From: Bacillota bacterium
GTDB taxonomy: Bacteria > Bacillota_I > Bacilli_A > RF39 > UBA660
Direction of reading: 5' to 3'
Length of the DNA stretch: 64,000 bases
Assembly (NCBI GenBank): GCA_015059375.1
Contig: SVAN01000003.1
Span: 27,211 to 91,210, forward strand
In this document: piece by piece, positions 26,853 through 29,148 of the stretch
Layout of the letters: every line of letters starts with the position of its first letter
Numbering within the stretch: the first letter of the stretch is position 1
Translations under genes and position numbers: made by a program
Notes under the pieces: model-generated
Told to the model about the DNA's origin: nothing
Seen by the model: the letters and a program-made list of their open reading frames with translations, nothing else
The model's database searches: none

Positions 26853-27728
26853 ATGAATGAATTAATAGAAAAAGAAAAAATAATAATTGAAGATATGATT
26901 TATGAAGTAAGAGGAGTACAGGTGATGCTTGATAGTGATATTGCAAAACTATATCATGTTGAAACTAAAAGAATTAATGAAGCTGTCAAGAATAATCCTG
27001 ATAAGTTTCCGGAAAGATTTAGTTGGGTTTTAACAAAGGAAGAGACAAAAAAAATAAGGTCGAAAATTTCGACCTTAGAAATTAAAGGCCAAGGAAAATA
27101 TAGTAAATATGATCCAAGAGTATTTACAGAGCAAGGGTTATATATGCTAGCAACTATTTTAAAATCTAAAGTTGCAACAGAGGTATCAATTGCAATCATG
27201 GATACCTTTGTAAAAATGAGACATTATATAAATTATAATAAGAATTTTTTACCCCATAAATTTATGCTTTTAGAGAAAAGGGTAGATGAAAATACACAAA
27301 GAATAAATGAATTATTTGATAAGTTTGACCCAAAAGAAATAGTTAAAGATTATCTATTTTTTGAAGGGGATTTTTATGACTCTTATTCATTATTACTGGA
27401 TCTTTTTAATACCGCTAAAGAAGAAATAATTATAATCGATAATTATGCAGGTAAAGAGTTATTAGATATTTTAAAAAAGATAAATAAAAAAATAATAATA
27501 ATTTCTAAAAACATAGATGATGTATTAAAGAAAAAATATGAACAGCAATATAATAATGTTTCATTTATAAATAATAGTTCTTTTCATGACAGATTTATAA
27601 TATTAGATAGAAATATATTATATTCGTGTGGAGCATCATTTAAAGATTTAGGCAAAAAATGTTTCGCGATTAATGAATTTATTGATAAAGAATATTTGAT
27701 AAAAATATTAGAAACAATATATTCTTAA
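26853..27728 (+). CDS. ORF6N (KilA-N-like) DNA-binding domain protein with a C-terminal HDRFIILD domain
   Basis: Start moved to MNELIEKEK, after a GGAGG RBS. The N-terminus (I..VRG..VMLD.D.A.LY.VETK.IN.AVKNN..KFP..F...L) is the ORF6N signature. The C-terminus has IIIIDNY....LLD.L and FHDRFIILD....Y.CGAS.KDLG.K. Confidence 0.7.
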   Translation: MNELIEKEKIIIEDMIYEVRGVQVMLDSDIAKLYHVETKRINEAVKNNPDKFPERFSWVLTKEETKKIRSKISTLEIKGQGKYSKYDPRVFTEQGLYMLATILKSKVATEVSIAIMDTFVKMRHYINYNKNFLPHKFMLLEKRVDENTQRINELFDKFDPKEIVKDYLFFEGDFYDSYSLLLDLFNTAKEEIIIIDNYAGKELLDILKKINKKIIIISKNIDDVLKKKYEQQYNNVSFINNSSFHDRFIILDRNILYSCGASFKDLGKKCFAINEFIDKEYLIKILETIYS

Positions 27729-27816
27729 TCCCGTTTTATTTCTGTTGTTAACTAGGGTTGAATCGTTAAATTAAAATTATAAATAGTAATAATCAAACAG
27801 ATCGAATAACAATAGC

Positions 27817-27845
27817 TTGATTTTTTTTTTTTTTTTTGATATTAT
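27817..27845 (+). promoter_or_regulatory. Promoter whose spacer is a T17 homopolymer (27821-27837)
   Basis: TTGATT (27817-22), 17-nt spacer (15 T plus GA), TATTAT (27840-45). It lies 29 nt upstream of the lipoprotein ATG at 27874. Confidence 0.5.
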
Positions 27846-27873
27846 GCGGAAAAATAAGGGTAGGCGGTTAAAA

Positions 27874-28671
27874 ATGAAATTAATAATCCCAAAAATTCAA
27901 TTAAGCTTGCTGGGACTTGGAATTATTATATTATTAAGTGTATGTCATAGTAATAAAGATGTAATAAATCAAACAGATTCAAAGATAGAAAAAAATCAAT
28001 TGGCATTTATTATGTGCGAAGGAGAGTCTTGCCAAACAACATCAACAATACCCGTAGGCGATTATATTTTAGATGAGGAAAGAACATATTGTGAAGCTGG
28101 AGGTAAGATAAGTAATTATGATTCAACTTTAGGGACAATAAAATATGTAGTAAAAGGAAACGATGAATGTAAAGTGTATTTTACAACGCCACTACAATTA
28201 GAACCCATTATTAATCAGACTTTTTCCAGCGGTACTAGCATAATAGTAAAAAATGAAGACGATATAACGAGTGGCACTTTTGATACACAAATAGAAACGC
28301 CGGTGGATTATGATGAGATTGAATATATTGATTTTAAAGAACTTGGATTAAGTGGTGAGTTTGTAGATGAATATGGCAATTTCGATTTTTGGGAAAATGA
28401 CTTAACAAACGATTTTTGTGATAATTATAATTTTTGTTATACTGTTTCTTCGATTTATGATGTCAAAATTTCACAAGCACTCTTCGATTCCATATGGGAT
28501 GATCCTAATTATGGCCAAATTAGTTTTAATCCAGAATCGACCTTACAATTTAATTATCTTTTCTATAGTGATGGAGATTTTACTTTGTATTTTGCGTTTA
28601 GATTAAAAAAGAAGGGATATAAACCCAGCGCTTGGTACTTGGCTTCTTACGGTTGGAATATAGCTTCATAG
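27874..28671 (+). CDS. Putative lipoprotein / secreted protein, function unknown
   Basis: Start moved to MKLIIPKIQLSLLGLGIIILLSVCHSN, a signal peptide with Cys that could be a lipobox. The ORF-track extension would translate the poly-T tract. Confidence 0.55.
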   Translation: MKLIIPKIQLSLLGLGIIILLSVCHSNKDVINQTDSKIEKNQLAFIMCEGESCQTTSTIPVGDYILDEERTYCEAGGKISNYDSTLGTIKYVVKGNDECKVYFTTPLQLEPIINQTFSSGTSIIVKNEDDITSGTFDTQIETPVDYDEIEYIDFKELGLSGEFVDEYGNFDFWENDLTNDFCDNYNFCYTVSSIYDVKISQALFDSIWDDPNYGQISFNPESTLQFNYLFYSDGDFTLYFAFRLKKKGYKPSAWYLASYGWNIAS

Positions 28672-28714
28672 CTTGTTATGAGATAAAAAGGTTATAAATC
28701 AAGAACTTTATCTA

Positions 28715-28743
28715 TTGCCAAAAGCATAATTTTATAATATAAT
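28715..28743 (+). promoter_or_regulatory. Sigma-A promoter for rpsO
   Basis: TTGCCA (28715-20), 17-nt spacer, TATAAT (28738-43). An 80-nt leader precedes the RBS. Confidence 0.5.
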
Positions 28744-28825
28744 GTTTTAGAAGTTTTAACTTAGTTTGGATTCTTTCTCGGTTCCATACTCAGTTTAAAC
28801 CGATTTAAAAAAGGAGGAAATTAAA

Positions 28826-29095
28826 ATGGCTTTAACAAAAGAAGAAAAGCAAACAATCATTAAAGAATTTGCTAAGAATGAAAAAGATTGTGGTTCTGCT
28901 GAAGTACAAATTGCAATTCTTACAAAAGAAATTAATGAATTAACTGAACATTTAAAAGTTCATTCTCATGATTATCATTCAAATCGTGGACTTTTAATTA
29001 AAGTTGGTAGAAGAAAAAAATTACTTGATTATTTAAAAAATAACGATGTAAAAAGTTATCGTGAAGTAATTAAAAAATTAAATATTAGAAAATAG
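28826..29095 (+). CDS. rpsO: 30S ribosomal protein S15
   Basis: 89 aa. GS.EVQIA.LT..I..LT.HLK.H..D.HS.RGLL..VG.R..LL.YL. Confidence 0.95.
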
Positions 29096-29148
29096 GCACT
29101 AAAATTTTTAGTGTCTTTTTTTATTCATAATGAAAGGAATGTAGAAAA

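Follow-up and report, generated by a model that had tools for sequence, protein, structure and literature searches.

The window analyzed here, a 64,000-nucleotide (nt) stretch of contig SVAN01000003.1 from a Bacillota bacterium (assembly GCA_015059375.1), contains an uninterrupted run of 17 T's shortly upstream of a gene for a predicted exported or membrane-anchored protein (Table 1). The source genome, referred to as G000, is a 1.01-Mb draft with 29.6% GC, and the studied locus is designated C25b. A first-pass annotation had described two promoter hexamers, TTGATT and TATTAT, spaced exactly 17 nt apart with 15 of the 17 spacer bases belonging to the T run, and had suggested that slippage within the run switches the downstream gene. 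Re-reading the sequence agreed with both the spacing and the base count, and the run was confirmed as the longest homopolymer of the window. The final T of the run and the G that follows it supply the TGn motif of an extended -10 element, and a promoter scan returned 9 of 12 matches with the TG motif present. The hexamer match alone is insignificant in this 30% GC DNA, and 27 promoter-like sites were found in 2.7 kb compared with 19.9 +/- 4.7 in shuffles. No Rfam family matched across 27650-27950. The comparisons described below lead us to consider it likely that the tract mediates slipped-strand phase variation, or acts as a rheostat, for a family of surface proteins in the manner of the Mycoplasma hyorhinis vlp promoters.

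Table 1. Features of the T17 locus and its immediate neighbors.
Feature	Position	Strand	Remarks
ORF6N-domain gene	26853..27728	+	Upstream neighbor
Upstream cassette edge GATCGAATAACAATAGC	27800..27816	+	CGAA(C/T) box 8-9 nt before TTGA
-35-like hexamer TTGATT	27817..27822	+	TTGA fixed; final TT are the first two T's of the tract
T17 homopolymer	27821..27837	+	Promoter spacer, putatively hypermutable; uninterrupted in the sequence
Extended -10 TGaTATTAT	27837..27845	+	Hexamer TATTAT at 27840-27845; GA at 27838-39
29-nt core GATATTATGCGGAAAAATAAGGGTAGGCG	27838..27866	+	Contains the -10, the predicted start region and the 5' untranslated region (5'-UTR) box GGAAAAATAAGGGTA
Gene behind the T17 promoter	27874..28671	+	Open reading frame (ORF) for a 265-amino-acid (aa) exported or membrane-anchored protein; ATG start codon at 27874
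rpsO promoter	28715-28743		TTGCCA, 17 nt, TATAAT

All five A/T runs longer than 10 bases in G000 sit in one cassette, TTGA-T(n)-GATATTATGCGGAAAAATAAGGGTAGGCG-(6-9 nt)-ATG, and each of the five long-tract cassettes precedes a member of a paralogous family of exported-protein genes. The tract is T17 in the studied copy, T19 in C25a (20 kb before the window), at least T19 in C6 (where the contig terminates within the tract), T20 in C13b, and T22 in C13a. With TTGATT as the -35 the spacer length equals n, so the studied copy is the only one at the canonical 17 nt in the assembled consensus. The core GATATTATGCGGAAAAATAAGGGTAGGCG occurs four times exactly in G000 and twice more with two mismatches. 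On the upstream side, CGAACG or CGAATA stands equidistant from TTGA in C13a, C25a, the studied copy, and a decayed copy, C10, and similarity between copies fades about 25 nt upstream of the tract. The C13b cassette (C13:29900-30277, outside the window) lies directly after genes for tRNA-Lys(UUU) and tRNA-Gln(UUG). Its gene encodes only 48 aa, a remnant that duplicates residues ~17-42 of the C13a protein and lacks the signal helix. The sixth copy, C10 (C10:126870-127170, also outside the window), has only T7 in the arrangement TTGAAT, 16 nt, TATTAT, carries two core substitutions, and heads an ORF of only 88 aa. C10 may be a "locked" member that was subsequently pseudogenized. A more distant paralog, C8, is tract-less and has an ordinary promoter-like region.

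The sequences beyond about -25 are unrelated between copies, and a separate canonical terminator stands 40-50 nt upstream of both C13a and C25a. Each gene therefore requires a promoter located within the cassette. We rejected a conserved upstream promoter because the flanks diverge beyond this point. The conserved cassette contains a single promoter-like element, TTG(A)-T(n)-TGnNANNAT. The proposal of a homopolymeric promoter spacer at the studied locus is supported, and the locus turned out not to be a lone switch but one of a five-member family. The exact G000 cassette (up to 3 mismatches) was absent from 40 relatives, which share only its looser architecture. A search for the exact cassette in collections of genome and metagenome contigs, which may omit near-identical records, also gave no match.

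We examined the spectrum of A/T homopolymers across G000. Runs of length 7 number 1307, followed by 305 of length 8, 26 of length 9, and 2 of length 10. No runs of 11-16 are present, and the five runs of 17-22 make the distribution bimodal. Run counts decay by a factor of ~0.08 per added base, giving a chance expectation of ~1e-7 for a run of at least 17; T17 is thus far beyond chance. The counts in the whole genome drop abruptly past length 8. This pattern suggests selection against slippery runs everywhere but in the cassettes, with assembly bias as the alternative.

We compared the tracts in G000 with those in metagenome contigs from other samples that encode exactly the same proteins. Contig L170 carries T23 at the studied copy, where G000 has T17, and the two sequences align over 3039 nt with 0 mismatches. 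For C13a, L165 (a k=141 contig) has T15 compared with T22 in G000 (1941 nt, 0 mismatches). For C25a, L013 has T32 compared with T19 (2283 nt, 1 mismatch). L168 reads T18 at C6, for which the G000 contig ends inside the tract (2789 nt, 0 mismatches). A comparison of tract length among strains had been named as a check on the switch, and it revealed three pairs of differing length within flanks of 1.9-3.0 kb. Exact counts are treated cautiously because short reads cope badly with such runs; we treat the 6-7-nt differences between clean, otherwise identical contigs as real. These results show that the tract is real and non-random, that it is part of a conserved cassette, and that otherwise identical sequences differ in nothing but its length.

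One join between cassettes was also observed. In the 3.6-kb contig L161/L193 (JGI 3300024268), a T22 cassette links the upstream flank of C6, with its genes for 455-aa and 125-aa proteins, to the C13a gene and hrcA. In G000 and L165, a different sequence precedes the C13a gene (L168 and L194 were also compared). The join reflects either inter-cassette recombination or an assembly chimera across the ~75-bp repeat.

The cassette architecture extends to other species of the genus. Runs of at least 14 T's followed by G were found 5 times in G000, 4 times in G009, 15 times in G012, and 7 times in G019, and not at all in the other 18 of 22 genomes. Tract lengths were read as 16, 16, 16, and 17 in G009 and as 17, 19, 20, 21 (four times), 24, and 33 in G012. 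The seven copies in G019 have near-identical flanks and all differ in length (16, 17, 18, 19, 20, 22, and 23). Across species, n lies between 15 and 24 except for two outliers at 33. In 25 cassettes from the four species, the consensus right behind the tract is G A [T/G] A N [A/T] A T G, in which hexamer positions A2 and A5 are each conserved in 25/25 and T6 and the TG each in 24/25. The -10 is followed by an A-run and an AAGGGTA box, and all four of these species preserve the AAAA...AAGGGTA part. TTG or TTGA adjoins the 5' end of the tract in nearly every cassette with an assembled upstream flank (six species); the exceptions are one G012 cassette (C26, AAAATC) and one from Lapin-001 (L178, CCCTAG). 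By polynucleotide phosphorylase (PNPase) identity to G000, G009 is the closest relative (92%) and G012 and G019 (83-84%) are among the most distant in the genus. The distribution within the genus is therefore patchy.

We searched ~185,000 species genomes with a generalized form of the pattern. Only five metagenome-assembled genomes (MAGs) matched, one from goat rectum and four from rabbit; three of them are presumably G009, G012, and G019. The architecture of TTG, T15-T24, a TGn -10, and AAGGGTA occurs 1 to 16 times per MAG in five other herbivore-gut Bacilli MAGs. The T15, T17, and T18 cassettes of Lapin-001_bin66 (L178, L180, and L183) precede proteins of 700-940 aa with a ...GATYAYF-type signal that are, by eye, unlike the N-terminal domain (N-domain) family encoded behind the G000 cassettes. 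One G009 cassette (C5, L052) leads into a similar SGSYAFY signal, and the downstream ORF was not matched by the N-domain hidden Markov model. Because it precedes proteins outside the N-domain family in these two genomes, the cassette appears to be a portable regulatory module. Its sequence context suggests a regulatory rather than a coding function.

The proteins behind the cassettes form a family of their own. The 265-aa protein has an N-terminal hydrophobic helix, a Cys-rich beta domain (residues ~41-110), and a variable C-terminal part. Its paralogs in G000 comprise four behind long-tract cassettes (one of them the 48-aa stub), the decayed 88-aa copy behind T7, and the tract-less one. The four full-length cassette-driven proteins (261-411 aa) share an N-terminal helix and a ~70-aa Cys-rich domain, with the consensus AFxxCD..C..P.GDYILDEE.TYCE.GGK.SNYDS.LGTIKY..KGNDECK.YF, and have divergent C-termini. 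The 265-aa protein has no Pfam match, and among the paralogs Pfam detected only DUF6273 in the C-terminal part of one. A word-based homolog search with the protein recovered a paralog alone. An HMMER scan of 1.84 billion representative proteins identified 208 with the N-domain, which is N-terminal in nearly all of the 150 matches listed and is followed by C-termini of widely differing length. Within the genus, the family occurs in 17 of 22 species at 1-23 copies each. An AlphaFold2 model places a helix at residues 7-24 and a beta domain at 41-110 with confidence (pLDDT) >90, and models the remainder poorly. A Foldseek search of this model against PDB returned nothing below E = 1.

The downstream gene had been annotated as encoding a lipoprotein or secreted protein. 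An exported or membrane-anchored product fits our analysis, whereas the lipoprotein assignment is weakly founded: the candidate lipobox, LSVC, has Val at -1, Cys is missing from the corresponding position in the G000 paralogs, and the AlphaFold2 model has an N-terminal transmembrane helix. Given the non-canonical lipobox and the Cys-less paralogs, "exported or membrane-anchored surface protein" is the safer label. Two cassette-driven genes in G012 do encode good lipoboxes, LATSC and ISTSC.

We propose the following model for the cassette. The T17 run would form the spacer of a sigma-70-type extended -10 promoter (TTGATT, 17 nt, TGaTATTAT), carried on a portable cassette consisting of the promoter, the 5'-UTR, and the start of a signal anchor. 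Replication slippage would add or remove T's, altering how far apart the -35 TTG and the -10 lie and how they are phased on the helix. The altered spacing would turn the exported-protein gene on, down, or off in a heritable and reversible way. The five cassette-bearing paralogs, each with its own tract, would be expected to switch independently, and a population would then display shifting combinations of surface proteins.

The spacer optimum of sigma-70 promoters is 17 +/- 1 nt, with a steep loss of activity outside 16-18 nt; on this basis, gain or loss of T's is expected to switch transcription or to modulate its level. The features kept across the 25 cassettes (TTG, TG, and NANNAT) are, as far as sequence can tell, exactly those that a promoter needs. 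A clear promoter with a 17-nt spacer also exists nearby, before rpsO. We infer that the hexamers are the promoter in use, that spacers of 16-18 nt are permissive, and that tract length changes frequently and alters expression. The repeated cassette, the length differences between assemblies, and the conserved architecture with variable n all support the slipped-strand switch that had been proposed for this promoter. The outcome may be a graded rheostat because an extended -10 lessens the dependence on the -35.

Several observations weigh against this model. Promoters with an extended -10 can tolerate a weak -35, so any ON/OFF effect would be less sharp. MutS is encoded in 20 of 22 genomes of the genus, G000 included, unlike in mycoplasmas, and its presence led us to reject loss of mismatch repair as the cause of instability. 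Read-through from the co-oriented ORF6N gene could provide tract-independent expression. The studied locus reads T17 in four assemblies (G000 together with L007, L008, and L009) and is not wildly unstable at the consensus level, and the G009 tracts, all 16-17, look stable. Short-read assemblies size tracts of T17-T24 poorly, and the lengths, especially T32 and T43, may be partly technical. The last three points and the presence of MutS are also what would be expected if the tract were a stable A/T-rich spacer of a constitutive promoter, with length differences that are short-read artifacts or old fixed differences. Many contigs do end at the tract or carry degraded sequence beside it, a pattern that would fit frequent length change within a population and would equally be produced by the difficulty of sequencing such runs. 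We nevertheless judge this explanation to be quite unlikely. The differences of 6, 7, and 13 T's occur within 2-3 kb flanks with at most one mismatch, one of them in a k=141 contig, and by our own estimate they exceed what slippage noise alone would produce. Near-identical G019 cassettes have seven different lengths. A constitutive promoter also has no need of spacers of 19-24 nt, which are nearly inactive by sigma-70 rules.

Two further explanations assign the tract a role in the transcript. In one, it functions chiefly as a U-tract for intrinsic termination or insulation, its length drifts neutrally, and expression is independent of the number of T's. The tracts of G012 and G019 directly adjoin a conserved hairpin, CAAGATT(TT)...AATCTTG, with a predicted free energy of ~-9 to -16 kcal/mol when flanks are included; sense-strand G.U wobble pairs are retained among its variants, and the upstream genes end just before the cassette without any other terminator. 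C13b in G000 also has a good hairpin (-8.7). At the studied locus, however, hairpin formation is negligible (-2.1 kcal/mol) and a terminator was not called, C13a and C25a already have the separate upstream terminators noted above, and the invariant TG-NANNAT after the tract is left unexplained. The other terminators of G000 do without a longer U-tract, as the genome has no other A/T run above 10 bases. We consider it unlikely that termination is the main role of the tract. The T run in G012 and G019 probably doubles as a terminator U-tract, and the terminator and promoter roles are compatible and complementary. In the other explanation, the promoter lies upstream, and the tract either acts as a U-run in the 5'-UTR that affects translation or stability or encodes poly-Phe from a TTG at 27817 as a frameshift switch. 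An open frame does run from this TTG through the tract into the gene, and likewise in C25a. AT-rich -10-like hexamers occur upstream (for example TTAACT, 18 nt, TAAAAT at 27748-27777), and every cassette has an ATG immediately after the -10. No Shine-Dalgarno (SD) sequence precedes the TTG, however, and the frame running across the tract is out of register with the gene in C13a (4+22+35 nt) and C13b. The mini-frame that begins at the ATG ends in three G000 copies at a TGA overlapping the start codon, and its relation to the gene frame varies between copies and species. We rejected the coding poly-Phe or upstream-ORF switch because of these differing frame relations and the missing SD sequence. 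The lack of conservation upstream of ~-25 argues against a shared upstream promoter, and the upstream TTGACA in G012 and G019 has no -10 at 16-18 nt. A transcribed tract thus strikes us as very improbable.

We compared the proposed promoter switch to known systems. As summarized in two later papers (PMC2268961, PMC10502178; original report by Citti and Wise 1995), insertions and deletions in a homopolymeric A tract of the -35/-10 spacer switch each separately transcribed vlp gene of M. hyorhinis ON or OFF. The likeness to vlp that had been suggested for our locus was borne out in arrangement, with five cassettes bearing tracts of 17-22 before paralogs, one of them truncated. In both systems, an A/T homopolymer fills the promoter spacer, each member of a surface-protein family has its own tract (vlp genes being transcribed separately), and the promoter and leader are conserved while the mature protein varies. 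The host here, like M. hyorhinis, is low in GC and lives on an animal; it is a genome-reduced relative of the Mollicutes. The vlp tract is reportedly similar in length to the tract here. The differences are also clear. The proteins here have no sequence relation to Vlp, matching nothing in Pfam and belonging to a private N-domain family; the G000 paralogs lack a canonical lipobox, and we noticed no tandem-repeat region. Instead of forming a cluster, the genes are spread across at least three contigs; the -10 is TGn-extended, MutS is present, and the tract follows a terminator-like hairpin in two species. Switching is here a prediction from sequence. On this evidence, the system would work like vlp without its products being members of the Vlp protein family.

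Other promoter switches are less similar. Insertions and deletions in the promoter spacer also switch surface-protein genes ON or OFF in Mycoplasma mycoides (Vmm, a (TA)n repeat) and in M. arthritidis (maa2) (PMC2268961, PMC10502178). These systems share the position of the repeat between the -35 and -10 of a surface-protein gene. They are single genes, and the Vmm repeat is a dinucleotide, whereas the repeat here is a mononucleotide T run found across a gene family. In Neisseria meningitidis, the poly-G tract of porA and the poly-C tract of opc lie in or at the spacer and set promoter strength, and slippage gives several expression levels. Unlike the tracts described here, these G/C tracts of ~9-14 fill part of the spacer and belong to single loci in Gram-negative pathogens. 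The sabA gene of Helicobacter pylori provides a "rheostat" in which the length of a poly-T tract, altered by slippage, tunes adhesin transcription (PMC4081817; PMC11162790). The cassettes here share the poly-T tract and, given the extended -10, the possibility of a graded outcome. The sabA tract is said to lie beside or upstream of the -35 and to act through the geometry of upstream contacts, unlike a tract in the -35/-10 spacer.

Additional conserved boxes surround the variable promoter in some species. In G012 and G019 (L056-L080), a perfect palindrome, GTCAATTGAC (or GTAAATTGAC), lies ~45 nt upstream of the tract, before the hairpin. A related box, TGTCAATTTACA, immediately precedes the SD sequence in the 5'-UTR, at ~35 nt downstream of the tract. 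The palindrome and the TGTCAATTTACA box are possible candidates for binding sites of a regulator that brackets the variable promoter. The tract-less species (L023-L049) have another conserved leader ~40-70 nt upstream of the family genes. It contains a 10-bp inverted repeat, TTTTCTTAAA-N9-TTTAAGAAAA, arranged like an operator around a TATAAT-like box, after which the segments CTCC(A)...(T)GGAG could pair and thereby occlude the SD sequence.

These features allow a broader, more tentative model of a three-in-one module. The T run would serve as both terminator U-tract and variable promoter spacer, while the GTCAATTGAC, TGTCAATTTACA, and AAGGGTA boxes would add deterministic control. The module would be portable before unrelated surface-protein families, and recombination between cassettes would reshuffle genes. 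We regard this combination as a possibility worth stating rather than as the probable arrangement.

The gene is part of an islet near rpsO that had been described as accessory, and the comparison with relatives agrees: none of 80 has either the gene or a T run of at least 12 within 3 kb upstream of rpsO-pnp. The protein encoded by the upstream neighbor has an ORF6N domain (Pfam E = 6e-30) and an uncharacterized C-terminal half, and ORF6N homologs occur upstream of rpsO in only 2 of the 80 relatives. No intrinsic terminator was predicted in 27729-27816, between the ORF6N gene and the variable gene, or in 28672-28825, between the variable gene and rpsO. With no predicted terminator on either side of the gene, the switch could be blurred by read-through both into and out of it. 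Transcripts that start at the variable promoter might also extend into rpsO, up to the terminator at 29094-29116.

Long T tracts have practical consequences for genome reconstruction. They break short-read assemblies and can create chimeric joins, and thus they mark unreliable spots in MAGs at which long reads would be informative.

The relatives of G000 are labeled uncultured Bacilli, "Tenericutes," or Candidatus Onthocola and come from rumen, goat, rabbit, chicken, and human gut; they probably correspond to the GTDB order RF39. Our literature search found no paper linking this bacterial group with phase variation, and the one paper that mentions both proved unrelated. Promoter-spacer homopolymer switching is textbook knowledge for pathogenic mycoplasmas, and the same search returned nothing for uncultured, genome-reduced gut Bacilli. 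Genome-reduced gut Bacilli of this group are common in herbivore and human guts. The cassette is confined to 6 of ~185,000 species genomes, and if the proposed mechanism is correct, the commensals that carry it would change their surface at random, presumably to counter host antibodies or phages.

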